Positions 1-60,442 of a stretch of 64,000 nucleotides of DNA are shown one piece after another. How positions within the stretch are numbered: the stretch's first letter is position 1; each line of letters starts with the position of its first letter. The stretch spans positions 4,588,001 to 4,652,000 of the forward strand of contig NC_092680.1 of assembly GCF_964355755.1 (NCBI RefSeq), given 5' to 3'. The notes under the pieces were generated by a model. The model was not told the origin of the DNA. It saw only the letters and a program-made list of their open reading frames with translations, and made no database searches. The position numbers and the translations under genes were made by a program. Source of the stretch: Antedon mediterranea. Its lineage: Eukaryota; Animalia; Echinodermata.

Positions 1-254
1 TGAATGAATACAAAGTAGATGAATATCACACTGTGTATAGTAAATCAAAGGTAATATTTTGTTTATTGTTTTGCTTTAGTATTTTCTCTTTTGGTGAGAT
101 TTAACACATCTTTTTTAATTAACCAGCCTATAAATCCAGAATAGGCGTACACAATATATTGTGTGTTATTTAATAATTTTATTTATGAATGTTAATTTTG
201 CAGTTCAGTTTTACCTGCAGTAGACCAATCAGTTTCACCCAGACAAGTGTTTGA
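1..254 (+). CDS. R0: 3' end of a TM-Roc-COR (ROCO) paralog, truncated by the window edge; exon ends at 50, terminal exon 204-254 (FSFTCSRPISFTQTSV*)
   Basis: 1-50 is nearly identical to the end of the R1 exon (..NEYKVDEYHTVYSKSK). Donor AAG|GTAAT at 50/51 and acceptor TTTTGCAG|TTC at 203/204. Confidence 0.8.
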
Positions 255-5507: not shown

Positions 5508-6109
5508 ATTAACATGAAAATACCAACAATTTCCAATTCAAATCCAACATATTTGTTATTGAAATTACACAATCGTAATAGTACAGAATTATAATTGATC
5601 AGTGAACTTTAAAATGAGTTGGCTCTCGTCACAATTAGGCCATACAAAATCACCTGTCGGTGTCCTCCGCTCGAAGCAGATTGGCTGTCATTTATTTCCA
5701 TTCTTTCCTCAGCTGCGCCTTCGTCACACATTTCTCATAGCTCATTTTTGTCCATTCCTTTGTGTTGGTTGTCCATGTAAAACGTGGTCTACCTCTGCCT
5801 CTTTTCCCGTCTATTTTACCATCTAGTATTTCCTTTTGAAGACTTTCCTTCCTTATGAGATGACCACAAAATTCTAGCTTTCTTTTCTTGAATTGGCATT
5901 TAAATTGGAAACACTATGCATATAATTGCCATTGAGCAGAAAAATGTGAGTTCACATTATAAACTATTTCCTTATATATATACTGGTCTTACAATTTACG
6001 TGAATCAGTCACCAAAACTGTGTGTAATTATCAGACAAGTCCAAAATAGGAAAAGGGTAACTAAAATAATGGCAAGGTTACATAAACGTCATAAAGTGCT
6101 TTGTAAAAT

Positions 6110-6217
6110 AACAAGGCCATATACATGGCTGCAGTCGCGTGCTCAAATGTGAGCCGACTGACCATCCGACCGACCAACCGACCGACTATCCGACCAACCG
6201 ACATAGTGAACTGTAGA
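6110..6217 (+). mobile_element. HINE/DINE-1-like element, 3' hairpin deleted
   Basis: AACAAG start, AGTCGCGTG subterminal repeat and (CCGA) microsatellite; homologous to 12366-12511. Confidence 0.55.
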
Positions 6218-6345
6218 TATGATTTTCAGATACGTGTTGTTAGAATTTATAATTGCTAAAATTTAAATTGTTCTGAATCTGATTGAATCTTCATATTTCA
6301 ATTATAGTGTATACATTGTAATGTTATAATAGAAGACCATATAAC

Positions 6346-9300
6346 ATGGAAAAAAAAGAACTGGATTACTTGAAAGGATATGCTGAATCCTACAAGCGAA
6401 GTTTCAACTTGCGAGTATTAGCAGATGATACTGAGATTAAAGAAGCTTACAAAACTGCTCGAGAAAGAGGAAAGTTACCTTTTAACAGAACTAAGGTTCT
6501 TATTCTGGGTGATCATGGTGCCGGGAAAACGTCAACCTGCAGGCGTTTACAAGGAAAAGATTTTCGTCCAGAAGAACCTAGTACAATTGGAATAGAAACA
6601 AACACTGTTGAGACGAAAGTCAGTGATGTTAATAGTAAATGGTGTGAGGTGACAAACACTCCATTAGAAGACTATGAAAGTTCAGCAGCGTGGTGGACAG
6701 TATCTCGTGTGCTTAAACAGGCAAAAAGGTTGTCAAAGGCACGTGGTTCGTCTGGCAATAAAACACATTTATTGATCCGAAAATTATTGGAGGACATATA
6801 TTACTTAATGTTGTATATTATCCCTTTTACTGTTATACAATGTTTTGGTGGGTTTACATTTGGGTTCGGGTCAGTTGTGTGGTTGTACATCTTTTGCATT
6901 ATGACAATATGTGACGTCCACACTGCATATCGCTTTGGTTGTGGATATGCTATAATGATGGTACTTGTAGATAGAGCTACACAAAATGAACAGTTTTCAA
7001 ACCTACAAAACATAGATATAAATACATGGATTTATTTCACTGTGGTTATGTTTGTTTGCATGTATGGAATTGGCTCATTCCTTGTCGGCATACTTATGGG
7101 CACAGGTGGAAGGACTGGTATCTGTTTAGCATTGTGTTTCATGGTACATCCAAATCAGACTGTTATTTCCATTGAAAGTTTTTTAGAAAAGCTATCATTT
7201 TTTTACAATATGATATATTATCTTAAATTCATATTTTCTGGAGTTATCCTAATAGTAATTTTTAGGAGCATTCACTCACAAATCTTTTCACTTAATCGAA
7301 GAAAGTTTATTACTTTGATAATAATTAACATCGTTTGTATCATTACAGCAATATACTTAGGAAGGAACAATTTTGTTGAAATATGTATTTTATTTTGCTT
7401 CATTGCAATTGTCTTTTCAATCATGTGTGGAGTTATATTAGGAAGAAAGATTGTAGCTTATGGCTATACACCTGGAAATTACTTTGTAAAGAAATCAGCA
7501 GGGTTTATTGTTGGAATATTTTTAGCAAAATTATGTGGTTGGAAATTTGGAAATGTGTCTAATTTAAGAGATGGTCATAACCATTCCAAGTCACAGTATA
7601 TATTTGACTTGATTTTATTTTTTGCCCCAATTACTGGTTTTATTATCTACGAATGGCATTCTTATACAAAAGTAAAAACTACATCGTCAATACCAATAGT
7701 GCATATCAGGAGGTCAATGGAAGCAGATATGCGAAACGAATGTTACATCGATGCCAGACTAAGTTTATGGGATTTTGCAGGACAAGAAATGTACTATAAT
7801 ACACACCACCTATTTATGCCAAAGCAAGGCGTATACTTGGTTGTTTTCAACGCTGTAGAAGCGATTTCTAATCCTGATAGACATATTAAACGGCTACAAT
7901 TCTGGTTACAATCTATTGCTATGCATGTTGATATTGAGAATGTTGTAGTGTTTCTTGTAGGAACAAGGAGAGAAAGTGTACGTGATGAAAATGCGTTTTC
8001 TACTTTTGGGAAATTTGTAACTGCACATCTTTACAAAAGATTTTCAAGATTGCTTGCTTTTCATCCAAGTGGACGACTTTGCTTTTTTATTGAAAACTCA
8101 TTTAATGTTGATAATGAGCTTTCCCTTTTGCGAGAAAGTATATATAATGAAGTTATGAAATTGAGATACTTTCGTGAACAATTTTCTGTAAAATATCTAC
8201 TATTTAAAGAAACGTTAAATGGATTTCGTCATAGACAGTGCGTTATTGCGAGTATAAAAGATATTGAAAACGAATTAGTGTTAACAAGTACCAACTTTGT
8301 GAAATATGAGGTGCGTCAACTTCTGAATTTCTTTGATAAATCTGGAGATATCATATACAATGAACTTGATGAACTACTTCAGAATTATGTTGTTTGTGAT
8401 CCTCAGGTATTAATAGACATTCTGAAATTATTAGTGAATGTACCTGAACCACACAAAAGAAACAGAGCCGTGTCTGATCTTTGGCAGAAATTACTGGAAA
8501 CAGGAATTGTAGACAGTAGACTATTGGAACACATTTGCCGAAACAAAGGAATTTGGAGAGTTTATCCTTACGTTATTCGGTATTTGGTCGGAACACAGTT
8601 AATGTTTCCACTTACAATAACTAACCGAGTTGATCAAGTTGGGACATTTTGTCTTCCTTGCAAATTGCCTAAAATTGAGTTGCAGCCACGTGAATTTAAT
8701 TACAGTTATCATACTTCTGACATATTTTATTTCGATTTTGGTGAAGTTTTACTAGAATTTATATTTCTTCGAATTATTGCAAAATGCTGTCAAGTGTTTG
8801 ATTGGATAAGGATCTATTATAACTGTGCGCATTTCAGAGCAAGTGAAACATGTTTTTTTCAAATAAACTCTGAGACAATTTGTGCAGATAGTATTTATGT
8901 ATATGATAGAAATCTATTAAAACTTTCAGTGTCCAAAGTAATCCCGAGTAAATCAGTCAATATCTTACGGAAAATGCATACTTTCATTGAAGAGATAATT
9001 CAACAAACATTTAATCCGGATTACTTTCACGATCAGTATCTTTTTGGTCCAGTATGTGAAAGATGTAGTTCTTTGGATGCAACGATGTGTTTGGTGAATC
9101 TTGTTGGCTTAAGTGACGATGTTTCTGCATTGAATGAATACAAAGTAGACGAATATCACACTGTGTATAGTAAATCAAAGGTAATATTTTGTTTATTGGT
9201 TTGCTTTAGTATTTTCTCTTTTGGTGAGATTTAACACATCTTTTTTAATTAACCAGCCTATAAATCCGGTATATGCGTACACAATATATTATTTGTTGTT

Positions 9301-9382
9301 TACTAATTTTATTTATGAATTAATTTTGCAGTTCAGTTTTACCTGCAGTAGACCAATCAATTTCACACAGACAAGTCTTTGA
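6346..9382 (+). CDS. R1: ROCO-family protein, Roc GTPase split by a polytopic transmembrane insert, followed by COR (~961 aa); exons 6346-9180 and 9332-9382
   Basis: G1 GDHGAGKTS (aa 55-63), switch I STIGIE, G3 LSLWDFAGQEMYYNTHHLF, G4-like FLVGTRRE; COR-like LLNFFDKSGDIIY and VVCDPQVLIDIL; ~8-10 hydrophobic segments at aa ~150-440. Phase-0 intron AAG|GTAAT...TTGCAG|TTC; last exon FSFTCSRPINFTQTSL*. Confidence 0.88.
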
Positions 9383-12639: not shown

Positions 12640-15600
12640 ATGGAAAAAAAAGAACTGGATTACTTGAAAGGATATGCTGAATCCTACAAGCGAAGTTTCA
12701 ACTTGCGTGTATTAGCAGATGATACTGAGATTAAAGAAGCTTACAAAACTGCTCGAGAAAGAGGAAAGTTACCTTTTAACAGAACTAAGGTTCTTATTCT
12801 GGGTGATCATGCTGCCGGGAAAACGTCAACCTGCAGGCGTTTACAAGGAAAAGATTTTCGTCCAGAAGAACCTAGTACAATTGGAATAGAAACAAACACT
12901 GTTGAGACGAAAGTCAGTGATGTTAATAGTAAATGGTGTGAGGTGACAAACACTCCATTAGAAGACTATGAAAGTTCAGCAGCGTGGTGGACAGTATCTC
13001 GTGTGCTTAAACAGGCAAAAAGGTTGTCAAAGGCACGTAGTTCATCTGGCAATAAAACACAATTATTGATCCGAAAATTGTTGGAGGACACATATTATTT
13101 AATGTTGTATATTATCCCTTTTACTGTTATACTATGTTTTGGTGGGTTGACATTTGGGTTTGGGCCAGTCGTGTGGTTGTACATCTTTTGCATTATGGCA
13201 ATATGTGACGTCCACACTGCATATCGCTTTGGTTGTGGATATGCTATAATAATGGTACTTGTAGATAGAGCTACACAATTAAATGAACAGTTTACAAACC
13301 TACAAAACATAGATTTAAATACATGGATTTATGTCACTGTGGTTATGTTTGTTTGCATGTATGGAATTGGATCATTCCTCGTCGGCATACTTATGGGCAC
13401 AGGAGGTAGGACTGGTATCTGTTTGGCATTGTGTTTCATGGTACATCCAAATCAGACTGTTATTTCCATTGAAAGTTTTTTAGAAAAACTATCATTTCTT
13501 TACAATATCATATATTATCTTCAATTCACAATTTTTGCAGTTATTATAATTGTAATTTTCAGGAGCGTTCACACACAAATATTTTCACTTAATCGACGAA
13601 AGTTTATTATTGTGATAATAATTAACAACGTTTGTATCATTACAGCAATATACTTAGGAAGGAACTATTTTGTTGAAATTTTTGTTTTATTTTGCTTCAT
13701 TGCAATTGTCTTTTCAATCATGTGTGGGGTTATATTAGGAAGAAAGATGGTAGCTTATGGCTATACACCTGGAAATTACTTTGTAAAGAAATCAGCAGGG
13801 TTTATTGCTGGAATATTTTTAGCAAAAGTATGTGGTTGGAAATTTGGAAGGAGTGTGTCAAATTTAAAAGATGGTCATAACCTTTCCAAGTCACAGTATA
13901 ATATATTTGACTTGATTTTATTTTTTGCCCCAATTACTGGTTTTATCATCTACGAATGGCATTCTTATATGAAAGTAAAAACTACGTCATCAATACCAAT
14001 AGTGCATATCAGAAAGTCAATGGAAGCAGATATGCGAAACGAATGTTACATTGATGCCAGACTAAGTTTATGGGATTTTGCAGGACAAGAAATGTACTAT
14101 AATACACACCATCTTTTTATGCCAAAGCAAGGCGTATACTTGGTTGTTTTTAACGCTGTAGAAGCGATTTCTAATCCTGGTAGACACATTAAACGGCTAC
14201 AATTCTGGTTACAATCTATTGCTATGCATGTTGATATTGAGAATGTTGTAGTGTTTCTTGTAGGAACAAGGAGAGAAAGTGTACGTGATGAAAATGCGTT
14301 TTCTACTTTTGGGAAATTTGTAACTGCACATCTTTACAAAAGATTTTCAAGATTACTTGCTTTTCATCCAAGTGGACGACTTTGCTTTTTTATTGAAAAC
14401 TCATTTAATGTTGATTATGAGCTTTTCCTTTTGCGAGAAAGTATATATAATGAAGTTATGAAATTGAGATACTTTCGTGAACAATTTTCTGTAAAATACC
14501 TATTATTTAAAGAAACATTAAATGGATTTCGTCATAGACAGTGCGTTATTGCGAGTATAAAAGATATTGAAAACGAATTATTGTTAATAAGTACAAACTT
14601 TGTGAAATATGAGGTGCGTCAACTTCTGAATTTCTTTGATAAATCTGGAGATATCATATACAATGAACTTGATGAACTACTTCAGAATTATGTTGTTTGT
14701 GATCCTCAGGTATTAGTAGACATTCTGACATTATTAGTGAATGTACCTGAACCACACAGAAGAAACAGAGCCGTTTCTGATCTTTGGCAGAGATTACTGG
14801 AAACAGGAGTTGTAGACAGTAGACTATTGGAACACATTTGCCGAATGAAAGGAATTTGGAGAGTTTATCCTTATGTTATTCGGTACTTGGTCGGAACACA
14901 GTTGATGTTTCCACTTACAATAACTAACCGAGTTGATCAAGTTGGGACATTTTGTCTTCCTTGCAAATTGCCTAAAATTGAGTTGCAACCACGTGAATTT
15001 AATTATAGTCATCATATTTCTGATATGTTTTATTTTGATTTTGGTGAAGTTTTACTAGAATTTATATTTCTTCGAATTATTGCAAAATGCTGTCAAGTGT
15101 TTGATTGGAGAAGGATCTATTATAACTGTGCGCATTTCAGAGCAAGTGAAACATGTTTTTTTCAAATAAACTCTGAGACAATTTGTGCAGATAGTATATA
15201 TGTATATGATAGAAATCTATTAAAACTGTCAGTGTCTAAAGTAATCCCGAGTGAATCAGTTAATATCTTACGGAAAATGCATACTTTCATTGAAGAAATA
15301 ATCCTACAAACATTTAATCCAGATTATTTTCACGATCAGTATCTTTTTGGTCCATTATGTGAAAGATGTAGTTCTTTGGATGGAACGATGTGTTTGGTGA
15401 ATCTTTTTGGCTTAAGTAACAATGTCTCCACATTGAATGAATACAAAGTAGATGAATATCACACAGTTTATTCTAAATCAAAGGTAACTGTTTAGTACTT
15501 ATATAGAATATATACTAAAATAGAATTTTGCTAAATATAATAATTGCTGTGTTTGGCAAAATATAATTTTTGTTTTTCTTTGTTTGTTAGCACTATAGCA

Positions 15601-18549: not shown

Positions 18550-18621
18550 GCCCCAGTGGTCTAATGGTTAGGGCAACTGCATATCAAGCAGACGGTCCGA
18601 GTTCGAGTCTTGGTTGGGGCG
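18550..18621 (+). tRNA. tRNA-like sequence (anticodon ATC, Asp-like), degenerate copy; probably SINE- or repeat-derived
   Basis: A box TGGTCTAATGG, B box GTTCGAGTC, acceptor GCCCCAG/TTGGGGC; one mismatch in the anticodon stem; lies in a 262-bp tandem unit ending in (TA)n. Confidence 0.45.
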
Positions 18622-18811: not shown

Positions 18812-18883
18812 GCCCCAGTGGTCTAACGGTTAGGACATCTGCATATCAAGCAGGCGGTCCGAGTTCGAGTCTCGGTTGGGGCG
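18812..18883 (+). tRNA. tRNA-like sequence folding as a full 72-nt cloverleaf with anticodon ATC (atypical Asp); tRNA pseudogene or SINE head
   Basis: Stems GCCCCAG/TTGGGGC, GTCT/GGAC, TCTGC/GCAGG and CCGAG/CTCGG; loop ATATCAA; T-run terminator immediately downstream. Confidence 0.55.
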
Positions 18884-19351: not shown

Positions 19352-22300
19352 ATGGATAAACAAGGTTTAAATTACTTGAATGGATATAGTGAATCTTTCA
19401 AGCGAAGTTTTAACTTGCGAGTTTTAGCAGATGATACCGAGATTAAAAATACTTACAAAACTGCCGAGGAACAAGGAAAAGTACCTTTTAAAAGAACTAA
19501 GGTTCTTATTTTGGGTGATTATGGTGCCGGAAAAACATCGACTTGCAGGCGTTTACAAGGAAAAGATTTTCGACCAGAAGAGCCTAGTACAATTGGAATA
19601 GAAACAAACACCGTTGAGGCGAAAGTCAGTGATGTTAATAGTAAATGGTGTGAGGTGACAAACACTCCACTAGAAGATTATGAAAGTTCAGCAGCATGGT
19701 GGACAGTATCACGTGTGCTCAAACAGGGCAAACATAAGGTGCCGAATGCTCGTGGTTTGTCTGATAACAATAAACGAGTATCGATCAGAAAAGTACTGGA
19801 AGACACATGTTATTTAATGTTGTATATCATTCCTTTTACTGCTATACTATGTTTCGGTGGGCTTACATTCGGTTTTGGGCCAGTCGTGTGGTTATACACC
19901 GGTAGCATTATGGCAATATGTGATGTTCACACTGCTTATCGCTTTGGTTGTGGATTCTCTGTATGGATGGTACTCGTAGATAGTGTAACAACACTAAATG
20001 AACAATTCGAAAATGTACAAAGCATAGACTTATGGATTTACACAACAGCTGTTAGGGTTGTTTGCATGTATGGAATTGGTTCGTTCCTTATTGGTGTGCT
20101 TGTCAGTGCAGGTAGTAGGACTGGTATCTGTGTAGCATTGTGCTTTATGGTACATCCAAGACAAACTTCAATTGAAGACTTTTTAGAAAAACTGTCTTTT
20201 ATTGAAAATATAGTTTACTTTAAATTTGTAATTTCTGTCTGTATCATAACAGCAATATTTAGGAGCATTCACACCAAAATATTGCCACTTAGTCGAAGGA
20301 AGTTGATTATTATATTAATGATTAACTTAATTTGTATCATTACAGCAATATATTATTTCGGAAGTAATAATTTTGTCGAAATTTGCATTTCATTTTGCTT
20401 TATTGCGATTGCTTTTTCTATAACCTGTGGAATTATATTAGGAAGAACAATTGTAGCTTATGGGTATGTGCCTGAAAATTACTTTATTAAGAAATCTTTT
20501 GGGTTTTTAGCTGGGATATGTTTAGCCACACTGTGTGGTTGGGAATTTGAAAATGTAAAGAATTTAATTATTTTAAATGATGGCCATAGCCATTCAACGT
20601 CAAAGTATTTATTTAACTTGTTTCTATTTTTTGCGCCAATTACTGGGTTTATTATCTACGAGTTATTATCTTATGTTAAAGTAAAAACTACATCATTAAT
20701 ACCATTAAAGCAAATAAGGAAATCAATTAAAGCAGAAGTGCGTAACGAATGTTACATAGATGCCAGACTAAGTTTATGGGATTTTGCAGGACAACAAATG
20801 TACTATAATACACACCATCTGTTTATGCCAAAGCAAGGCGTATACTTGGTTGTTTTCAACGCTGTAGAAGCGATTTCTAATCCCGATAGACACATTAAAC
20901 GGCTACAATTCTGGTTACAATCTATTGCTATGCATGTTGATATTGAGAATGTTGTAGTGTTTCTTGTAGGAACAAGAAGAGAAAGTGTACGTGATGGAAA
21001 TGCGTTTTCTACTTTTGATAAATTTGTAAATGCACATATTTATAAAAGGTTTTCAAGATTGATTGCTTTTCATCCAAGTGGACGACTTTGCTTTTTTATT
21101 GAAAACTCATTTAATGTTGATAAGGAGCTTTACCTTTTGCGAGAAAGTATATATAATGAAGTTACAAAATTGAGATACTTTCTTGAAAAATGTTCTGTAA
21201 AATATCTACGATTTAAAGAAACGATAACTGGATTTTGTCATAGACAGTGCGTTATTGCGAGTATCAAAGATATTGAAAACGAATTGTTGTTAACAAGTAC
21301 CAACTTTGTGAAATATGAGGTGCGTCAACTTCTGAATTTCTTTAATAAATCTGGAGACATTATTTACAATGAACTTGATGAAGTACTTCACAATTATGCT
21401 GTTTGTGATCCTCAGGTATTAATAGACATTCTTACAGTATTAGTGAATGTACCTGAACCACACAAAAGAAACAAAGCCGTGTCTGATCTTTGGCAGAGAT
21501 TACAAGAAACTGGGATTGTTGATAGTAGACTGATGGAACACATTTGCCAAGACAAAAGAATTTGGAGAGTCTATCCTTTAGTAATTAAGTACTTGGTGGG
21601 AACACAGTTGATGATTCCAATTAAAATAACTAATCAAGTTGATCAAGTTGGAACATTTTGTATTCCTTGCAGATTGCCCAAAATTGATTTGGAAAAATTT
21701 GAATTTAATTATAGTGAACATATTTCTGACGTATTTTATTTCGATTTTGGTGAAGTTCTACAAGAATTTATATTTCTTCGACTTCTTGCAAAATGCTGCC
21801 AGGAGAAAGAGTTTGATTGGGTTAAGATATATTACAACTGTGCCCAATTCAGAGCGAGTGAAACATGTTTGTTTCAAATAAACTCTAAAACAATTTCTTC
21901 GGGCAGTGTTTTGTTATATGATAGAAATCTCATCAAACTGTCAGTGTCTAAAGAAATCCCGAGTCAATCAGTTAATATATTACAGAAACTGCACACTTTC
22001 ATTGAAGAAATAATTTTACAGACATTTAATCAGGATTACTTTCGTGATCAGTATGTTTGTGGTCCAGTATGTGAAATATGTAGTTCATTGAATGGAACGA
22101 TGTGTTTGGTGAATCTTGCTTCATTAAGTAACGATGTATCTGCATTGAAGGAATACAGGGTAGATCAATACCACACAGTTTATCGTGAAGGAAAGGTAAT
22201 TTGGTTTTATGATTTTTCTATTAGCAATGAAAATTTAAAGCCATATTTCATTGAATCAATTATATTGTATAATTCATTGTGTATACAAAGGTAAAACAAT

Positions 22301-26298: not shown

Positions 26299-29291
26299 AT
26301 GGAACAAAACCATTTAAATTACTTGAAAGGATATGCTGAGTCTTTCCAGCGAAGTTTTAACATGCGAGTTTTAGCCGAAGATACTGAGATTAAAGAAGCT
26401 TACAAAACAGCTCAGGAAAGAGGACAAGTACCCTTTAACAGAACCAATGTTCTTATTCTGGGTGATCATGGTGCTGGGAAAACCTCGACTTGCAGACGTT
26501 TTCAAGACAAAGATTTTCGGCCTGAAGAGCCTAGTACAATCGGAATAGAAACAAACACTGTTGAGGCGAAGGTTAGTGATGTTAATAGTACAAATGGTGT
26601 GAGTTTACAAACACTCCTTTACAAGATTATGAAAGTTCAGCAGCGTGGTGGACAGTGTCACGTGTGCTTCAACAGGATAAAAATAAGTTGCCAAAGGCAC
26701 GTAATAAATCTGTCACTGATGTAAATGTGTCGATCCGACAAATATTTGAGGACATAATTTACATGCTGTTTCATATTATTCCAATGCCTGTAATTTTCTG
26801 TTTTGGTGGACTTACTTTCGGGTTCGGACCGGTTGCATGGTTATACATCTTTTACATTTCAAGAATTTGTGATGTTCACAGTGCCTATCGCTTTGGTTGT
26901 GCGTACACTTTATGTATGGCACTCGTAGACAGTGCTACTCAAGTTGCTCAGCAACCTGTCGTTGAGTTAAATATGTGGATTTATGTGACTGTTGTTATAG
27001 TTGTTTGCTTGTATGGGTTGGGTTCGTTCCTGGTTGGTGTGCTTATGAGTGCAGGTGGTAGGACTGGTATTTGCTTAGCTTTTTGTCTCATGGTACATCC
27101 AAAACATACCGTACTATTATTTCTATTGAAGTTTTCATAGAAAAAATATTATTCATTGACAATATAATATACATTGAGTTTGGTATTTTCTGCAGTTATT
27201 TTAATATTTGTTTTTAGAAGTATGCATACCAAAATATTTTCTCTTAGTCGAAGAAAGTTGGTCATTGTATTTATACTAAACATAATGCTTATAACAACAG
27301 CATTATATTTGGGAAGCCACAATTTTGTTGATATATTTACATCGTTTTGCTTTATTTCAATCGGATTTTTTTTGCAATTTGTGGAGTTCTTCTAGGAAAG
27401 CAATTTGGAGCGTATGGGTATTTCACTGAACACTACCTTGTAAAAAAGGCTATTGGGTTTATTGCTGGGATTTATATTGGCAGAATGTTTGGTTGGAAAT
27501 TTGAAAATTTTAACAATCTAACTATCTTAGAGAAAGAACTTTCACAATATTTGCTTAAAGTTGTGTCATTTGTTGCACCAGTTTTGGGTTTTATTATCTA
27601 CGAATGGTTTTCTTACATGAAAGTAAAATCGACGTCATCGATACCAATTGTGCATATCAGAAAATCAATGGAAGCAGATCTACGAAACGAATGTTACATT
27701 GATGCCAGACTAAGTTTATGGGATTTTGCAGGACAAGAAATGTACTATAATACACACCATCTATTTATGCCAAAGCAAGGCGTATACTTGGTCGTTTTCA
27801 ACGCTGGAGAAGCGATTTCTAATCCTGATAGACACATTAAACGGCTACAATTCTGGTTACAATCTATTGCTATGCATGTTGATATTGAGAATGTTGTAGT
27901 GTTTCTTGTAGGAACAAGAAGAGGAAGTGTACGTGATAAAAATGCGTTTTCTACTTTTGATAAATTTGTAAATGCACATCTTTACAAAAGGTTTTCAAAA
28001 TTGATTGCTTTTCATCCAAGTGGACGAATTTGCTTTTTTATTGAAAACGCATTCAATGTTGATAAGGAGCTTAACATCTTACGAGAAAGGATATATAATG
28101 AAGTAACGAAATTGAAATATGTTTGCGAAATGTTTTCTGTAAAATACCTATTATTTAAAAATACTTTAAATGGATTTCGACATAGACAATGTATTATTGC
28201 GAGTGTAAAAGGTATTGAAAATCAATTAAAGTTACCAAGCAAAATCTTTGTGAAATATGGAGTGCGTCAACTTTTGAATTTCTTTGATAAATCTGGAGAT
28301 ATCATATACAATGAACTTGATGAACTACTTCAGAATTATGTTGTTTGTGATCCTCAGGTATTAATAGACATTCTGAAAGTATTAGTGAATGTACCTGAAC
28401 CACACAAAAGAAACAGAGCCGTCTCTGATCTTTGGCAGAGATTACAAGAAATGGAATTGTTGATAGTAGACTGATGGAACACATTTGCCGAAACAAAGGA
28501 ATTTGGTCAGTTTATCCTTATGTTATTCGGTACTTGGTGGGAACAGAATTGATGTTTCCACTTACAATAACTAATCAAGTTGATCAAGTTGGAACATTTT
28601 GTCTTCCTTGCAAATTGCCCAAAATTAATTTACAACAAGGTGAATTTGATTCTAATACATACTTTTACTTCGATTTTGGTGAAGTTTTAGGCCTACTAGA
28701 ATTTATATTTCTTCGACTTTTTGGAAAATGCTGCCAAGTTTTTGATTGGCTTGAGGTCTATTATAACTTTGCACATTCCAGAGCAAGTGAAACATGTTTG
28801 TTTCAAATAAACACTGAAACAGTTTCTTCGGGCAGTATTTTTCTATACGATAGAAATCTCATCAAACTTTCAGTTTTAAAGGAAATCCCGAGTCAGTCAG
28901 TTAATATCTTACAGAAAATGCATACGTTCATTGAAGAAATAATCCTACAAACGTTTAATCCGGAATACTTTCATGATCAGTATCTTTTTGGTCCTGTGTG
29001 CGAAAGATGTAGTTCTTTCGATGGAACAATGTGTTTAGTGAATCAATAAGTAACGATGCATCAAATGAATACAGAGTAGATAAATATCACAAAGTGTATC
29101 ACAAACCAGAGGTAATTATATGGTTATTTTAGCTAAATGTGCTTTAATTAATTATCTTTGTTAGTAGTGAGTAACGCCATAGTTAATTGATTTAGTTTTT
29201 GTTTTTAATATTATTTATACTAATTTGCTTTATAAATTCTTTTTTTTTTTTGCAGTTCAGTTTTACCTGCTGTAAACCAACCTTCACCTAG
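26299..29291 (+). pseudogene. R4: TM-Roc-COR pseudogene with multiple frameshifts; exon to 29111, terminal exon 29256-29291
   Basis: Homologous sequence spread over ORFs 26299, 26655, 27174, 27347 and 28432; indels near 26590, 27115, 27370, 28450 and 29045. Confidence 0.85.
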
Positions 29292-29411
29292 ACAACTGTT
29301 TGATAAATTGATCAAATAAACAGGTTATGTAGTGTTGCATTAAATACAGGAGAACCCCAGGGGACACTACCGACATTTTCCGTTTAATATAGGTTTTTGC
29401 GCGGAAAAACA

Positions 29412-30274
<863 letters not shown>

Positions 30275-32880: not shown

Positions 32881-35865
32881 ATGGAACGGAAAGGATTGAA
32901 TTACTTGAGAGAATGTTCTGAATCTTATAAGCGAAGTTTTAACTTGCGAGTTTTAGCAGATGATTCCGAGATTAAAGAAACTTACAAAACAGCCCAAGAA
33001 AGAGGAAAAGTACCTTTTAACAGAACGAAGGTACTTATTTTGGGTGATCATGGTGCTGGAAAAACGTCAACCTGCAGGCGTTTGCAGAGTAAAGATTTTC
33101 GTCCAGAAGAGCCTAGTACAATCGGAATAGAAACAAACACTGTTGAGGCGAAAGTCAGTGATGTTAATAGTAAATGGCGTGAGGTGACAAACACTCCATT
33201 AGAAGACTATGAAAGTTCTGCAGCGTGGTGGACAGTATCTCGGGTGCTCAAACAGGATAAAACTAAGGATAAGTTAAAGGCAAATAATACGTCTGGAAAT
33301 AATACATATGCTTCGATCGGAAAAGTATTACAGGACACATACTACCTAATGTTTCATATTATGCCTATGACAGTAATGTTCTGTTTTGGTGGACTTACAT
33401 TTGGATTCGGGCCAGTTGCATGGTTTTATATAATTTGTCTTTCGGTATTTTGTGATTTTCACAGTGCTTATCGATTTGGCTGTGGTTATACTATATGTAT
33501 GGTACTCATAGATAGCGCTACACATTTTGGCCAGCAACATGTCATACAATTTAATTTACAGATGTACGTAATGACTATAACAATTGTCTGCATGTATGGA
33601 CTGGGGTCGTTCCTTGTTGGTGTGCTTATGACTACAGGTGGAAGGACTGGCATCTGTATAGCTTTGTGTTGCATGATACATCCAAGCCATACCACAATTT
33701 CTCTCGAAGTCTTACTAGAACACTTATCTAATATGTTTTACAGTATGAAATATTTAGAGTTCTCAATTTATGGAGTTACTATATTGACCATTTTTAAAAT
33801 CATTAACACTAGTCTAAGAAATGTGATAATTGTATTGGTACTTAATATCATGCTTATAACAGCAGCGATATATTTCGGAAGACACAATTTTGTTGACATT
33901 TGTACATTATTTTGTTTCATTTTTACCGTGTGTTTCTTGATTTGTGGGCTTATAATAGGAAGAAAATTAGTGGCGTATGGGTATGTCCCTCAATACTACC
34001 TTTTTAAACGGTTTATTGGGTTTATTGCTGGAATATATATTGGCAAAATGTGTGGTTGGGAAATTGGCAATTTTAACCATCTAAGTATATCAGAGAAAGA
34101 TCATAGCCTCTCTATGTCAAGTTTGTTGACATTTATTGCCCCAATTTGGGGGTTTATAATCTACGAATGGTTTTCTTACATGAAAGTAAAATCGACGTCA
34201 TCGATACCAATTGTGCATATCAGAAAATCAATGGAAGCAGATTTACGAAACGAATGTTATATTGACGCCAGACTAAGTTTATGGGATTTTGCAGGACAAG
34301 AAATGTACTATAATACACACCATCTATTTATGCCAAAGCAAGGCGTATACTTGGTTGTTTTCAACGCTGTAGAAGCGATTTCTAATCCTAATAAACACAT
34401 TAAACGGCTACAATTCTGGTTACAATCTATTGCTATGCATGTTGATATTGAGAATGTTGTAGTGTTTCTTGTAGGAACACAAAGAGGAAGTGTACGTGAT
34501 GAAAATGCGTTTTCTACTTTTGATAAATTTGTAAATGCACATCTTTACAAAAGGTTTTCAAGATTGCTTGCTTTTCATCCAAGTGGACGAATTTGCTTTT
34601 TTATTGAAAACGCATTCCATGTTGATAAGGAGCTTAACATCTTACGAGAAAGGATATATAATGAAGTAACGAAATTGAAATATTTTTGCGAAATGTTTTC
34701 TGTAAAATACCTATTATTTAAAAACACTTTAAATGGATTTCGACATAGACAATGTATTATTGCGAGTGTAAAAGATATTGAAAATCAATTAAAGTTAACA
34801 AGCAAAATCTTTGTGAAATATGAAGTGCGTCAACTTTTGAATTTCTTTGATAAATCTGGAGATATCATATACAATGAACTTGATGAACTACTTCAGAATT
34901 ATGTTGTTTGTGATCCTCAGGTATTAATAGACATTCTAAAATTATTAGTGAATGTACCTGAACCACACAGAAGAAACAGAGCCGTGTCTGATCTTTGGCA
35001 GAGATTACAAGAAACTGGGATTGTAGATAGTAGACTGATGGAACACATTTGCCGAAATAAAGGAATTTGGAGAGTTTATCCTTACGTTATTCGGTACTTG
35101 GTGGGAACAGAGTTGATGTTCCCACTTACAATAACTAATCAAGTTGATCAAGTTGGAACATTTTGTCTTCCTTCCAAATTGCCCAAAATGAATTTGCAAC
35201 AAGGTGAATTTGATTCTAATCATACTTCTAATATATTTTACTTCGATTTTGGTGAAGTTTTACTAGAATTTATATTTCTTCGACTTATTGCAAAATGCTG
35301 CCAAGTGTTTGATTGGCTTGAGGTCTATTATAACTTTGCACATTTCAGAGCAAGTGAAACATGTTTGTTTCAAATAAACACTGAAACAGTTTCTTCGGGC
35401 AGTATTTTTCTATACGATAGAAATCTCATCAAACTTTCAGTTTTAAAGGAAATCCCGAGTCAGTCAGTTAATATCTTACAGAAAATGCATACTTTCATTG
35501 AAGAAATAATCCTACAAACGTTTAATCCGGAATACTTCCATGATCAGTATCTTTTTGGTCCAGTATGTGAAAGATGTAGTTCTTTGGATGGAACAATGTG
35601 TTTGGTGAATCTTGTTGCAATAAGTAACAATGCATCGAATGAATACAGAGTAGATAAATATCACAAAGTATATCACAAACCAGAGGTAATTATATGGTTA
35701 TTTTACCTAAATGTGCTTTAATTAATTATCTTTGTTAGTAGTTAGTAGTAACGCCATAGTTAATTGATTTAGTTTTTGTTTTTAATATTATTTATACCAA
35801 TTTGCTTTTTAAATTCTTTTATTTTGCAGTTCAGTTTTACCTGCTGTAGACCAACCTTTACCTAG
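32881..35865 (+). CDS. R6: TM-Roc-COR paralog (~946 aa); exons 32881-35685 and 35830-35865
   Basis: All Roc/COR motifs present. In-frame TAA upstream of the ATG supports the start. Donor GAG|GTAAT; last exon FSFTCCRPTFT*. Confidence 0.88.
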
Positions 35866-40987: not shown

Positions 40988-43900
40988 ATGGAACAAGAAG
41001 GATTGAATTACTTGAGAGGATGTGCTGAATCTTTCAAGCGAAGTTTTAATTTGCGAGTTTTAGCAGATGATTCCGAAATTAAAGAAACTTACAAAACAGC
41101 TCAAGAAAAAGGAAAAGTACCTGTTAACAGAACTAAGGTTCTTATTCTGGGTGATCAAGGGGCCGGAAAAACGTCGACCTGCAGGCGTTTACAAGGAAAG
41201 GATTTTCGATCAGAAGAGCCTAGTACAATCGGAATAGAAACAAACACCGTTGAGGCGAAAGTCAGTGATGTTAATAGTAAATGGTGTGCAGTGACAAGCA
41301 CTCCACTTGAAGACTATGAAAGTTCTGCAGCGTGGTGGACAGTATCACGTGTGCTTAAACAGGATAAATATAAGGATAAGTTAAAGGCAATGAATACGTC
41401 TGAAAATAATACACGTCCTTCGATCCGAAAAGTATTACAGGACACATATTACCTAATGTTTCATATTATGCCTATGACAGTAATGTTCTGTTTTGGTGGA
41501 CTTACATTCGGATTCGGGCCAGTTGCATGGTTTTATATAACTAGATGGCACGCTCGCTTCGCTCGCGTACCATCTAGGTCGTGCCCACAGATGGTTCTCG
41601 AATACACAGTATTTCCAGCGAGAAAAAAATGGAGATTTCAAATGTACGTACCGCAGGACTATAATACATTGTCGTTTACAGAAACGAATAAATATACACA
41701 ATGATTTATGTAGTCAACCAAAATTAGCACCCTGGGAATTACTTCCGAGAGAGAAACAAATTTTTTTATTCGGACTCATTTAAACAAACCCAATTTGTGT
41801 TTTGTATGTAACATTAAGGGTTGAGGGATGGGGAAAGAAGATAGGTACAAAGAGGAAACATTTTAAAATATATTCTTATCCACTCAGTAACGAAATATTG
41901 TTTTTAATGTTTTATAGGCCTATAAATAATATACCATTAAATACAGTAAAACATTTACGATTTAATACGGTACTTTGTTAAAACTCTCACTGTCATAGTC
42001 GATTGAAATAGTAAAGTACATGTAACGATACACCACTACGACGTTTATATATTTTTAAATTATTAATTAATACAAACGTTGAGAAGCAACTGTCAGTAAT
42101 AACGTTTATTTATTTGTATATTATATGTTTATAATCTAACAGTAGGGCCTACCCACACTCACAGTAATAAAGTTTATTTGTATATATTTTATATTACATC
42201 TAACAGTACCAACACTCACAGTAAGAAATTTGCTATTCAAATTGCGATCAAAAGTGGTTAATACCTTAACAGTATTGTACAGCATTGCAGTACTATTTAT
42301 GTTTATTCTCCAAGGGGGCCCATAAATCTAAATCTATACCTCTATGGTTAAACCAAATAATTTGGAATGTTTATTTGTATATTATATGTTTATAATCTAA
42401 CAGTAGGGCCTACCCACACTCACAGTAATAAAGTTTATTTGTATATATTTTTATATTACATCTAACAGTACCAACACTCACAGTAAGACATTTGCGATTC
42501 AAATTGCGATCAAAAGTGGTTAATACCTTAACAGTATTGTACAGCATTGCAATACTATTTATGTTTATTCTCCAAGGAGGCCCATAAATCTAAATCTATA
42601 CCTGTATGGTTAAACCAAATAATTTGGAATGTTCCATTCATCACAAATCAATACATTTGTAAAAACGTATATTAAATGTAACAAAATAGTATTTTTTAAA
42701 GAAAATCGGCCTGTCTTCAACATTATGATGCTGTACTCGAACTGTTCAACCGGTTTTCAGCTATTAAAAACAATTATCGTAGGAGGAGATAGAAAAATGC
42801 GAAGCCTCCTCGCATTTTTGTGGCGGGTATTTTTCAAGATGGACATCCATTAGACAGTGTATACCACGATCGGAAAACACCCCTATTTGGGGCAAATCTT
42901 TGAACCTAAATTCGTTTTAATCGTCAATAACTAATTATCTAACTTAATTTAATTAGTAAACAGGGTTACATCAGGTGGTTAAAATCAGTACCGAAAGTAC
43001 GAACCAACTTTACATACCATCGAGTAAAAATTCTAAAAGTAAGGCGCGATTTACCGAATTTTGCCCTTACGTAAATTTATATATAGATTTGTCTTTCGGT
43101 ATTTTGTGATTTTCACAGTGCCTATCGCTTTGGCTGTGGTTGTACTATATGTATGGTACTCATAGATAGCGCTACACATTTTGGCCAGCAACATGTTATA
43201 CAATTTAATTTACAGATGTACGTAATGACTATAACAATTGTCTGCATGTATGGACTGGGGTCGTTCCTTGTTGGTGTGCTTATGACTACAGGTGGAAGGA
43301 CTGGCATCTGTATAGCTTTGTGTTGCATGATACATCCAAGCCATACCACCATTTCCCTCGAAGTCTTACTAGAACACTTATCTAATATGTTTTACAGTAT
43401 GAAATATTTAGAATTCTCAATTTATGGCGTTACTATATTGGCCATCTTTAGGATCATTCACACCAAAATATTTTCGCTTAGTCCAAGAAATATGATAATT
43501 GTATTGCTACTTAATATCATGCTTATAACAGCAGCGATATATTTCGGAAGGAACAGTTTTGTTGACGTTTGTACATTATTTTGTTTTACTTTTACTGTGT
43601 TTTTCTTAATTTGTGGGCTAATATTAGGAAGAAAATTAGTGGCGTATGGATATATCCCCCAACAGTATCTTTTTAAAAAGTCTATTGGGTTTATTGCTGG
43701 AATATCTATTGGCAAAATGTGTGGTTGGGAAATTGGCAACTTTAACCATCTAAGTATATCAGAGAAAGAGAATAACATTTCTATGTCAAGTTTGTTGACA
43801 TTTATTGCCCCGATTTGGGGGTTTATAATCTACGAATGGTTTTCTTACATGAAAGTAAAATCGACGTCATTGATACCAATTGTGCATATCAGAAAATCAA

Positions 43901-45521
43901 TGGAAGCAGATCTACGAAACGAATGTTCCATTGACGCAAGACTAAGTTTATGGGATTTTGCAGGACAAGAAATGTACTATAATACACACCACCTGTTTAT
44001 GCCAAAGCAGGGCGTATACTTGGTTGTTTTCAACGCTGTAGAGGCGATTTCTAATCCTGGTAGACACATTAAACGGCTACAATTCTGGTTACAATCTATT
44101 GCTATGCATGTTGATATTCAGAATGCTGTAGTGTTTCTTGTAGGAACAAGAAGAGGAAGTGTACCTGATGCAAATGCTTTTTCCACTTTTGATAAATTTG
44201 TAAATGCACATCTTTACAGAAGGTTTTCAAAATTTCTTGCTTTTCATCCAAGTGGACAACTTTGCTTTTTTATTGAAAACGCATTCAACTTTGATAAGGA
44301 GCTTAACATCTTACGAGAAAGGATATATAATGAAGTAACAAGATTGAAATATTTTTGCGAAATGTTTTCTGTAAAATACCTATTATTTAAAAACACTTTA
44401 AATGGATTTCGACATAGACAGTGTATTATTACGAGTGTAAAAGATATTGAAAATGAATTAATGTTAACAAGCAAAATATTTGTGAAATATGAAGTGCGTC
44501 AACTTTTGAATTTCTTTGATAAATCTGGAGATATCATATACAATGAACTTGATGAACTACTTCAAAATTATGTTGTTTGTGATCCTCAGGTATTAATAGA
44601 CATTCTGAAATTATTAGTGAATGTACCTGAACCACACAAAAGAAACAGAGCCGTGTCTGATCTTTGGCAGAGATTACAAGAAACTGGGATTGTAGACAGC
44701 AGACTGATGGAACACATTTGCCGAAACAAAGGAATTTGGAGAGTTTATCCTTATGTTATTCGGTACTTGGTGGGAACAGAGTTGATTTTTCCACTTACAA
44801 TAACTAATCAAGTTGATCAAGTTGGGACATTTTGTCTTCCTTGCAAATTGCCCAAAATTAATTTACAAGTTGAATTTGATTCTAATCATACTTCTAATAT
44901 ATTTTAATTCGATTTTGGTGAAGTTTTATTAGAATTTATATTTCTTCGACTTATTGCAAAATGCTGCCAAGTTTTTGATTGGCTTGAGGTCTATTATAAC
45001 TTTGCACATTTCAGAGCAAGTGAAACATGTTTGTTTCAAATAAACACTGAAACAGTTCCTTCGGACAGTATTTTCCAATACGATAGAAATCTCATCAAAC
45101 TTTCAGTTTTAAAGGAAATCCCGAGTCAGTCAGTTAATATCTTACAGAAAATGCATACTTTCATTGAAGAAATAATCCTACAAACGTTTAATCCGGAATA
45201 CTTTCATGATCAGTATCTTTTTGGTCCAGTATGTGAAAGATGTAGTTCTTTGGATGGAACAATGTGTTTGGTGAATCTTGTTGGAATAAATAACGATGCA
45301 TCGAATGAATACAGAGTAGATAAATATCACAAAGTGTATCACAAATCAAAGGTTATAATTATATGGTTATTTTACCTAAATTAATTATCTTGGTTAGTAG
45401 TGAGTAACGCCATAGTTAATTGATTAAGTTTTTGTTTTTAATATTATTTATACTAATTTGCTTTATAAATTCTTTTATTTTACAGTTCAGTTTTACCTGC
45501 TGTAGACCAACCTTCACCTAG
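40988..45521 (+). pseudogene. R7: TM-Roc-COR pseudogene (Helitron insertion 41541-43087; TAC>TAA at 44905-44907); terminal exon 45486-45521
   Basis: Removing the insert restores WFYIICLSVF in frame; a single nonsense codon lies in COR (..SNIF*FDFGE). Confidence 0.88.
41541..43087 (-). mobile_element. Non-autonomous Helitron (~1.55 kb) inserted in the R7 coding exon
   Basis: Minus-strand TC...CTAG termini with 3' hairpin; the empty site TATATAA|TTTGTC is seen in R6/R9; no TSD; internal ~260-bp tandem duplication. Confidence 0.92.
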
Positions 45522-49039: not shown

Positions 49040-52000
49040 ATGGAACAACAAGGATTGAATTACTTGAGAGGATGTGCTGAATCTTTCAAGCGAAGTTTTA
49101 ATTTGCGAGTTTTAGCAGATGATTCCAAAATTAAAGAAACTTACAAAAGAGCTCAAGAAAAAGGAAAAGTAACTGTTAACAGAACTAAGGTTCTTATTCT
49201 GGGTGATCATGGTGCCGGAAAAACGTCGACCTGCAGGCGTTTACAAGGAAAGGATTTCCGACCAGAAGAGCCTAGTACAATCGGAATAGAAACAAACACA
49301 GTTAAGACGAACGTTAGTGATGTTAATAGTAAATGGTGTGAGGTGACAAGCACTCCACTTGAAGACTATGAAAGTTCAGCAGCGTGGTGGACAGTATCAC
49401 GTGTGCTTAAACAGGATAAATATAAGGATAAGTTAAAGGCAATGAATACGTCTGAAAATACATATGCTTCGATCCGAAAAGTATTACAAGACACATATTA
49501 CCTAATGTTTCATATTATGCCTATGACAGTAATGTTCTGTTTTGGCGGACTTACATTCGGATTCGGGCCAGTTGCATGGCTTTATATTATTTGTCTTTCG
49601 GTATTTTGTGATTTTCACACTGCCTATCGATTTGGCTGTGGTTATACTATATGTATGGTACTCATAGATAGCGCTACACATTTTGGGCAGCAACAGGTCA
49701 TACAATTTAATTTACAGATTTACGTAATGACTATAACAATTGTCTGCATGTATGGACTGGGGTCGTTCCTTGTTGGTGTGCTTATGACTACAGGTGGAAG
49801 GACTGGCATCTGTATAGCTTTGTGTTGCATGATACATCCAAGCCATACCATAATTTCCCTCGAAGTCTTACTAGAACACTCATCTAAGATGTTTTACAGT
49901 TTGAAATATTTAGAATTCTCAATTTATGGAGTTACTATATTGACCATTTTTAGGATCATTCACACCAAAATATTTTCGCTTAGTCTAAGAAATGTGATAA
50001 TTGTATTGGTACTTAATATCATGCTTATAACAGCAGCGATATATTTCAGAAGGAACAATTTTGTTGACGTTTGTACATTATTTTGTTTTATTTCTACTGT
50101 GTTTTTCTTAATTTATGGGGTTATAATAGGAAGAAAATTTGTGGCGTATGGATATATCCCTCAAAACTATCTTTTTAAAAAGTCTATTGGGTTTATTGCT
50201 AGAATATATATTGGCAAGATATGTGGTTGGGAAATTTGCAATTTTAACCATCTAAGTATATCAGAGAAAGAAAATAGCCTTTCTATGTCAAGTTTGTTGA
50301 CATTTATTGTCCCGATTTGGGGGTTTATAATCTACGAATGGTTTTCTTACATGAAAGTAAAATCGACGTCATCGATACCAATTGTGCATATCAGAAAATC
50401 AATGGAAGCAGACCTACGAAACGAATGTTCCATTGAAGCCAGACTAAGTTTATGGGATTTTGCAGGACAGGAAATGTACTATAATACACACCATCTGTTT
50501 ATGCCAAAGCAAGGCGTATACTTGGTTGTTTTCCATGCTGTAGAAGCGATTTCTAATCCCGATAGACACATTAAACGGCTACAATTCTGGTTACAGTCTA
50601 TTGCTATGCATGTTGATATTGAGAATGCTGTAGTGTTTCTTGTAGGAACAAGAAGAGGAAGTGTACCTGATGCAAATGCGTTTTCCACTTTTGATAAATT
50701 TGTAAATGCACATCTTTTCAAAAGGTTTTCAAGATTGCTTGCTTTTCATCCTAGTGGACAACTTTGCTTTTTTATTGAAAACGCATTCAACTTTGATAAG
50801 GAGCTTAACATCTTACGAGAAAGAATATATAATGAAGTAACAAAATTGAAATATTTTTGCGAAATGTTTTCTGTAAAATACCTATTATTTAAAAACACTT
50901 TAAATGGATTTCGACATAGACTGTGTATTATTGCGAGTGTAAAAGATATTGAAGATGAATTAATGTTAACAAGCAAAATCTTTGTAAAATATGAAGTGCG
51001 TCAACTTTTGAATTTCTTTGATAAATCTGGAGATATCATATACAATGAACTTGATGAACTACTTCAGAATTATGTTGTTTGTGATCCTCAGGTATTAATA
51101 GACATTCTTAAATTATTAGTGAATGTACCTGAACCACACAGAAGAAACAGAGCCGTGTCTGACCTTTGGCAGAGATTACAAGAAACCGGAATTGTTGACA
51201 GTTTACTGATGGAACACATTTGCCGAAATAAAGGAATTTGGAGAGTTTATCCTTATGTGATTCGGTACTTGGTGGGAACAGAGTTGATGTTTCCACTTAC
51301 AATAACTAATCAAGTTGATCAAGTTGGAACATTTTGTCTTCCTTGCAAATTGCCCAAAATTTATTTACAACAAGGTGAATTTGATTCTAATCATACTTCT
51401 AATATATTTTACTTCGATTTTGGTGAAGTTTTACTAGAATTTATATTTCTTCGACTTATTGCAAAATGCTGCCAAGTTTTTGATTGGCTTGAGGTCTATT
51501 ATAACTTTGCACATTTCAGAACAAGTGAAACTTGTTTGTTTCAAATAAACACTGAAACAGTTTCTTCGGGCAGTATTTTCCTATACGATAGAAATCTCAT
51601 CAAACTTTCAATTTTAAAGGAAATCCCGAGTCAGTCAGTTAATATCTTACAGAAAATGCATACTTTCATTGAAGAAATAATCCTACAAACGTTTAATCCG
51701 GAATACTTTCATGATCAGTATCTTTTTGGTCCTGTGTGTGAAAGATGTAGTTCTTTGGATGGAACAATGTGTTTGGTGAATCTTGTTGCACTATGTAACG
51801 ATGCATCGAATGAATACAGAGTAGATACATATCACAAAGTGTATCACAAACCAGAGGTAATTATGGTTATTTTACCTAAATGTGCTTTATTAATTAATTA
51901 TCTTTGTTAGTAGTGAGAAGTAAAGCCATAGTTAATTGATTAGGTTTTTGTTTTTAATAATTATTATTTATACTAATTTGCTTTATAAATTATTTTATTT

Positions 52001-60200: not shown

Positions 60201-60442
60201 ATTAACTAATTAAATAATATGCACAGTTATGAATGTTATCAATTGGTAATAATATAGATATTCAATTACATATTTTAAACTGAACAAGTAAGTCCAGTTG
60301 AACAGATTTAATTTAATTTTGGTAAAATGAACTTGCATATAAAAATTACTTTTCTATAAGATCATTCATGCAATATGTTTATTGTACTATCCATTTATAC
60401 ACTTCGCTAAATGAAACTCATTGTACATATACATAACAACAC

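Follow-up and report, generated by a model that had tools for sequence, protein, structure and literature searches.

A Roco GTPase of the feather star Antedon mediterranea with a predicted ten-helix membrane domain inside its G domain, and its repeatedly expanded family

Can the G domain of a Roco GTPase be interrupted by a multi-pass membrane domain, and what might such a domain do there? The question is raised by a stretch of 64,000 nucleotides from the crinoid (feather star) Antedon mediterranea (contig NC_092680.1 of assembly GCF_964355755.1, positions 4,588,001 to 4,652,000), here called the window, which harbors six intact and two broken tandem copies of one gene and the tail of a ninth. 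One intact copy, R1 (P0001), corresponds to the RefSeq protein XP_071964422.1 of 961 amino acyl residues. An open reading frame of 962 codons is found at 6346-9234. Exon 1 (6346..9180, + strand), which matches the RefSeq model, provides codons 1-945 and thereby the split Roc domain, the membrane domain, and nearly all of COR, whereas exon 2 (9332..9382, +) contributes the final 16 codons and the stop. The intron between them (9181-9331) is of the GT-AG type and the gene end at 9382 is correct. The interruption of the Roc domain is real, and it extends to a conserved, repeatedly expanded family.

The Roc domain of R1 comes in two halves. The N-terminal half (6484..6630, +; residues 47-95) comprises β1, the P-loop with the G1 motif GDHGAGKTS at residue 55 (6508-6534), α1, switch I with Thr80 (6583-6585), and β2. 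The C-terminal half (7744..8166, +; residues 467-607) comprises β3, the G3 motif WDFAGQ starting at residue 475 and containing Asp476 (WDFAG at 7768-7782), a G4-like GTRR at residue 539 (7960-7971), and a G5-like ENS at residue 583 (8092-8100), and the distance from Thr80 to Asp476 is 396 residues. The Pfam Roc model PF08477 recognizes R1 in two stretches (E 9.5e-20, 71.5 bits at a cut-off of 27), and the Roc domain of LRRK2 is the best sequence match in the PDB (E 3e-18). When the family profile is aligned with LRRK2 Roc, it falls into two pieces, positions 39-93 and 464-568, which abut at residues 65-68 of the LRRK2 construct, a junction that we take to be the tip of the β2-β3 hairpin of the Ras fold. 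In VIA structure comparison, the C-terminal half superimposes on LRRK2 Roc (2zej) with Z 11.0 and a root-mean-square deviation (rmsd) of 2.1 over 102 residues. Of 46 family rows, 45 possess motifs G1 and G3; Thr80 is conserved, and so is the G4-like motif. The spacing between G1 and G3 amounts to 390-435 residues in 45 of 46 family proteins, the model of the 46th having no G3 motif, but only to 45-48 residues in the Rocos used for comparison (an MFHAS1 and three of the LRR type). As the long spacing is common to so many family proteins, the split is not due to chance.

Downstream of Roc, COR-A and COR-B follow (8182..9343, +; residues ~613-949). Although COR-A stays under the Pfam cut-off (E 0.015), the COR fold is clear when compared with the COR structure 3dpt from C. 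tepidum (VIA Z 15.7, rmsd 3.8, 272 residues; Foldseek E 1.5e-6). Judging from its Roc motifs and its COR fold, R1 is a Roco (Roc-COR) GTPase, for which GTPase activity is predicted. Pfam matches no LRR or kinase domain in R1, neither N- nor C-terminally, in agreement with the in-frame stops found no more than 50 codons ahead of each of the eight starts examined and with Met1, which forms an invariant column in an alignment of 29 rows. Membership of R1 in the LRR-Roco, LRRK, or DAPK1 groups was considered and rejected, as it possesses no LRR, kinase, or Death domain.

Between the two Roc halves lies the membrane domain (6799..7665, +; residues 152-440, predicted N-in/C-in). Hydropathy averaged over the alignment reveals ten hydrophobic segments in this region, with boundaries set manually, and an AlphaFold2 model of the insert alone, built from 34 rows, displays ten long helices (predicted local distance difference test score, pLDDT, 80.8; predicted template-modeling score 0.78). 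For topology scoring, the N-terminal side was taken as cytosolic with loops alternating, and the truncated P0053 was excluded. The density of Lys plus Arg is higher in inner than in outer loops in all 45 rows, and 45 N-glycosylation sequons occur outside versus 3 inside (the outer loops total about 65 residues, the inner ones about 42), from which a cytosolic position of both Roc halves is predicted. An outgoing cytosolic stalk (6631..6798, +; residues 96-151), consisting of a helix with the conserved residues W99, E111, and W116 and then a variable basic linker, precedes the membrane domain, and a returning stalk (7666..7743, +; residues 441-466) with K442, V443, and P450 leads as a helix into β3. 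The ten helices are predicted to form a compact domain that has its two ends on the cytosolic side and is connected by a two-armed stalk to the tip of the β2-β3 hairpin. With such a placement, the Roc halves could fold into one G domain. An initial annotation of this DNA had proposed a Roco split by a multi-pass membrane domain of about 8-10 helices, even in number, with cytosolic Roc halves, a COR domain behind, and no domain in front of Roc, and on all these points the present analysis agrees with it.

Residues kept in at least 85% of the crinoid and of the hemichordate rows (D190, Y195, R196, G254, R256, G258, G362, G366, R367, Y379, and K442) cluster at the cytosolic ends of the helices, and E436 is also listed among the conserved residues of the cytosolic face. 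In 45 of 46 rows helix 10 closes with an acidic residue, most membrane helices are devoid of conserved charged residues, and the three long outer loops show a mean identity of 13-33%.

Relatives with the same insert are encoded at 19 loci in the crinoid Anneissia japonica, once each in the sea stars Patiria miniata and Acanthaster planci, at one locus in the hemichordate Glandiceps talaboti, and in 16 protein clusters, a few of them perhaps isoforms, on one 45.7-Mb contig of the hemichordate Ptychodera flava. All of them are labeled "uncharacterized" in databases. A phylogenetic tree calculated without the insert, from the C-terminal Roc half and the COR-A region, unites all 29 insert-bearing rows among its 39 at 99/97; this tree includes three non-crinoid members, omits 14 Ptychodera proteins, and carries a long-branch warning at the point where the family joins. 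Since the family is united even when the insert is left aside, a single gain of the insert, preceding the divergence of echinoderms and hemichordates, is most likely. The window copies fall into an Antedon-only clade, and Antedon, Anneissia, and Ptychodera have undergone separate expansions. Three word-seeded searches and a phmmer scan revealed no members outside the Ambulacraria and none among sea urchins, sea cucumbers, or brittle stars, although two of these four scored only the best ~8,000 candidates and all were confined to proteins of at most 1,903 residues, so that absence is not established. Within the family, a C-terminal Death domain is a hemichordate feature, with precomputed matches in 12 of 16 Ptychodera clusters and one in Glandiceps, whereas R1 has none and a translation of the window in all six frames yields none either (best E 0.68).

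Two further features vary within the family. At the end of COR (~9055-9350; residues 904-950 of R1), crinoid and sea-star members possess a CxxC...H...C cluster, a possible zinc site, and hemichordate members have a related Cys/His set directly before the Death domain. Most crinoid members have Gln directly after the G3 glycine, whereas Patiria has Gly, and P0050 as well as nine further Ptychodera rows have Asp or Asn (rows compared: P0050, P0051, P0067-P0072, P0074, P0079, and P0080). Given this residue, GTP turnover may differ between paralogues.

Rates of non-synonymous (dN) and synonymous (dS) substitution were estimated for the six intact window paralogues, with intervals from bootstrap resampling of columns and with pairs that are not independent of each other. 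The insert shows dN/dS 0.40 (0.33-0.49), with dN 0.215 and dS 0.54 (0.45-0.63). This dS is about twice that of Roc (0.21; 0.16-0.27) and COR (0.26; 0.21-0.31), and the intervals do not overlap. Within the insert, the outer loops display the highest dN, 0.285, at dN/dS 0.42 (0.29-0.62). Values of dN/dS are 0.20 for the Roc halves as well as for the stalk, 0.10 for residues 47-120, and 0.83 for the variable linker (residues 121-148) between the N-terminal Roc half and helix 1. We interpret these values as probable gene conversion, which would keep the GTPase part homogeneous and leave the membrane part to diverge. Because of its dN/dS and of protein motifs that are kept across echinoderms and hemichordates, the insert has to be considered coding and subject to purifying selection.

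The membrane domain finds no match at curated cut-offs in Pfam or NCBIfam, and a phmmer search with the insert against 1.84 billion representatives returned eight matches, seven family members and P0052, which was dropped as an unrelated repeat protein. Foldseek with the AlphaFold2 model of the insert retrieves nothing at E 0.001 from the PDB or BFVD (PDB template-modeling (TM) scores ≤0.26), VIA scores stay below Z 8 in sets of 48,161 and 991 chains, and Atlas feature searches give no usable match. Such missing family and structure matches are no proof of a new fold. One weak structural lead points to the major facilitator superfamily (MFS), which likewise forms polytopic helical bundles with short basic cytosolic loops. 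In eight of ten rows, the Atlas model of the Patiria homologue aligns with MFS clusters at TM 0.51-0.58 over 226-239 residues, although all these rows are under the tool's own bar and the query model has a pLDDT of 0.57. In VIA, the MFS protein SV2A ranks first (Z 6.7, rmsd 6.2, 184 aligned residues), inside the stated helical-bundle background, and in several weaker rows helices 6-9 superimpose on the C-terminal half of MFS chains. In contrast, hhalign of the insert profile with 30 E. coli MFS proteins yields probabilities of 0.1-0.2%, equal to those of four control membrane families. The insert has ten helices and neither a Pfam nor a profile match, whereas MFS proteins have twelve helices in two halves of six; an internal two-fold repeat was sought in 12 segment pairs and dismissed at a best probability of 16% over 12 columns. 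An MFS ancestry, with its weak structural resemblance and without sequence support, seems unlikely.

Which role could a membrane domain play at this site? Roc is a Ras-like G domain whose switch II touches COR, and it is through COR-B that the proteins cycle between monomer and dimer, depending on the nucleotide (PMC6337361 and PMC4104024). We favor, with even confidence, the reading that R1 may unite a membrane sensor and a Roc-COR switch in one chain and may act in innate defense. Outer loops and lipid-facing helices, which are most divergent between paralogues, would recognize a ligand or a membrane state, and the conserved Arg/Gly/Tyr cytosolic face together with the stalk would relay the signal to β2-β3, the link between switch I and switch II. 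The signal might then shift the exchange or hydrolysis of the nucleotide as well as the COR-dependent cycle between monomer and dimer that has been described for other Rocos. In hemichordates, this cycle would bring the Death domains together or uncover them, and crinoid and sea-star members, which have none, might signal via a separate adaptor or via the membrane domain itself. As hemichordate members carry their Death domain at the C-terminus, the membrane domain seems to serve as input rather than output. An immune role is suggested by tandem expansion, birth and death of copies, Death domains, and analogy with Ectocarpus Rocos and AP-GTPase systems; two of the eight window copies are broken, which we count in favor of this reading. 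Published work describes the clustered, fast-turnover Rocos of Ectocarpus as proposed pathogen receptors (PMC3341825) and assigns AP-GTPase-COR proteins to counter-invader systems (PMC8195603).

Several observations weigh against this reading. In the full-length model, helices and COR are reproduced but residues 1-147 and 442-492 remain under pLDDT 50, and no assembled G domain is visible because the N-terminal Roc half and the returning stalk are modeled so poorly. No region class of the six window paralogues has dN/dS above 1, and diversifying selection is therefore not demonstrated. Crinoid and sea-star members have no recognizable output domain. The insertion site tolerates unrelated soluble inserts in mussel Rocos, where G1 and G3 are 195-196 residues apart, and might thus be passive. 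Finally, in the RefSeq models of Anneissia LOC117108504, isoform X3 equals X1 minus residues 95-432, in frame, with nine and a half helices gone. Soluble inserts in invertebrate Roc domains had been anticipated by the initial annotation, whose other expectations fared variously. The term "self-contained" suits crinoid and sea-star members but not the Death-bearing hemichordate ones. A membrane module in the interswitch region agrees with an insert at the β2-β3 tip, whereas a direct coupling of this module to the nucleotide state is conjecture, since the mussel inserts show the site to be permissive. Splicing-out of the hydrophobic region, named there as an argument against a membrane receptor, is encountered in the one Anneissia isoform model, and elsewhere the insert is kept.

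If the membrane domain were instead the output, i.e., a transporter, channel, or pore, possibly of degenerate MFS fold, it would be gated by the Roc-COR cycle, by analogy with FeoB, in which a G domain controls the transporter. The Atlas alignments with MFS clusters, SV2A as top VIA row, helices 6-9 lying on the C-terminal MFS half, the missing output domain in crinoid and sea-star members, and the acidic end of helix 10 are in line with such a function. However, the Atlas rows are below the bar and derive from the poorer model, the better AlphaFold2 model obtains nothing from Foldseek, the SV2A score lies within background, and hhalign does not distinguish MFS proteins from controls. Most helices also have no conserved charges and hemichordates already own a Death output, so that we judge a gated transporter or pore rather unlikely. 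Somewhat less likely still is a mere anchor or oligomerizer, with Roc-COR set by local concentration or cytosolic partners and no allostery through β2-β3. For this speak the unrelated soluble inserts of mussel Rocos, the variable linker with its high dN/dS, the soluble Anneissia isoform model, and Ectocarpus Rocos with one or two C-terminal membrane anchors (PMC3341825). A ten-helix domain that keeps Arg, Tyr, and Gly residues invariant across crinoids and hemichordates is, however, more than an anchor requires, and a stalk at dN/dS 0.20 with conserved K442, V443, P450, W99, E111, and W116 points in the same direction.

One might also suppose that the hydrophobic block is an intron or exitron which is usually removed, or that the copies are decaying, and that the main product is a soluble Roc-COR protein. 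Judged from the codons, the gap of isoform X3 suggests a GT-AG splice inside the exon. A donor homologous to that of X3, in the outgoing stalk, reads GT in five of the six intact window copies and GC in the sixth, and two copies of the array are broken. However, no window copy has a matching in-frame AG in helix 10, the insert is skipped in only one of nine protein pairs compared (seven isoform pairs of one locus and two Ptychodera pairs), and RefSeq models keep it in 45 of 46 aligned rows. Furthermore, the block is open in six copies, and its dN/dS and its motifs conserved across phyla rule out an intron or artefact as the principal explanation. We consider this possibility very improbable; a soluble isoform may exist in some genes but is not the rule.

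Returning to the sensor-switch reading, a wider proposal can be formulated, which we regard as possible rather than probable. These proteins might form a new class of one-chain receptor-GTPases, in which a ten-helix sensor of undescribed fold, or a former transporter, would sit in the interswitch hairpin and drive the Roc-COR dimer cycle, with Death output in hemichordates. Through tandem duplication, a homogenized GTPase part and a diverging membrane part would provide a species-specific receptor repertoire, and the in-exon splice could give soluble decoys or regulators.

The remaining copies of the array are all on the + strand. The window opens with the 3' tail of an upstream paralogue (1..252, end approximate), comprising the end of exon 1, the intron, and the last exon, and nucleotides 1-2674 are 96.8% identical to 9131-11796. 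The main exon is open in R2 (12640..15486; 93% amino acid identity to R1), R3 (19352..22204; 77%), R5 (32881..35700; 74%), R7 (49040..51874; 73%), and R8 (56250..59072; 74%). R4 (26299..30001) suffers from frameshifts and is followed by a duplicated 3' piece (29412-30000), and R6 (40988..45357) bears a Helitron-like element in helix 2 and a premature stop in COR. More Antedon paralogues are situated on the same 22.3-Mb contig outside the window. The non-coding element in R6 (41541-43087, -) has a second copy at 23632-25002 (+); both show 5' TC, 3' CTAG behind a hairpin, and insertion between A and T without target duplication, and by the terminal rules of Helitrons they are presumably Helitron-like. 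The RefSeq model P0081 reads the insertion in R6 as an intron.

Other elements occupy the spacers. A fragment of eukaryotic large-subunit (LSU) rRNA at 866-1071 (+; Rfam E 1.9e-13, model positions 2622-2802) has copies near 3700-3900 and 9990-10190, the spacer having been duplicated along with the youngest gene copies. A 262-bp tandem duplication contains two tRNA-Asp-like genes (18550-18621 and 18812-18883, +), both with the unusual anticodon ATC, which are probably pseudogenes or a tRNA-derived repeat. The minisatellite at 60447-61825, with about 71 copies of a 19-bp unit, accounts for two long open frames at 60411-61448. A GACC-type microrepeat element, probably a miniature inverted-repeat transposable element, occurs in both orientations at 6100-6340, upstream of R1, and in the spacer at 10230-10350.

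Characterized Rocos, including Parkinson's-linked LRRK2, are soluble and contact membranes through partners. How the Roc-COR cycle is controlled is still debated, as stated in the review PMC6337361. With no other domains, the crinoid form provides the simplest setting for asking whether input from the membrane can drive this cycle from within the G domain. An undescribed, repeatedly expanded family of candidate receptors in invertebrate deuterostomes, including the laboratory model Patiria miniata, comes with a ten-helix membrane domain that matches no solved structure significantly. That the architecture had not been described before, as the initial annotation supposed, is apparently so: no polytopic membrane domain inside Roc was found in titles and the beginnings of abstracts, with subscription journals and supplements lying outside this coverage and the domain-architecture data of PMC8195603 being a place where such proteins could be listed. 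The word "transmembrane" does not appear in the main text of the Roco review PMC6337361.

With LRRK1/2, the Rocos from C. tepidum and M. barkeri, and MFHAS1, the R1 family shares Roc motifs G1-G5 and COR-A and COR-B immediately behind them. In contrast to these Rocos, R1 has no LRR, ANK, or kinase domain, about 420 rather than 45-48 residues separate G1 from G3, and ten helices lie inside the G domain. DAPK1-type Roc-COR-Death proteins and P0032, P0044, and P0057 from Mytilus resemble R1 in possessing no LRR and in having an insert between G1 and G3, and P0032 shares the C-terminal Death domain with the hemichordate members. The Mytilus inserts, however, are hydrophilic, about 150 residues long, and unmatched by the membrane-domain profile, and the R1 family has no kinase, unlike the DAPK1 type. 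A set of ENA metagenome proteins (P0033, P0035-P0042, P0045, P0047, P0049, and P0058-P0060) of 646-728 residues, which start just before Roc, have no LRR, show an H-D-F-A-G variant of G3, and have G1 and G3 separated by a short soluble insert, constitutes a minimal soluble Roc-COR family. The ROCO genes of Ectocarpus (Zambounis et al., PMC3341825; Teng et al., PMC11378527) likewise show local clusters, birth and death, a proposed immune role, and some membrane segments, with Roc insertions and C-terminal anchors among brown-algal Rocos. Yet their anchors, one or two, are C-terminal and their variable part is the LRR array (PMC3341825). One Ectocarpus Roco contains an 850-residue Roc insert that is a repeat array after strand 5 and not a membrane domain in β2-β3.

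FeoB, atlastin, and mitofusin combine a G domain and membrane helices in one chain, with the membrane part following an intact G domain. In the R1 family, the membrane part is located inside the G domain.

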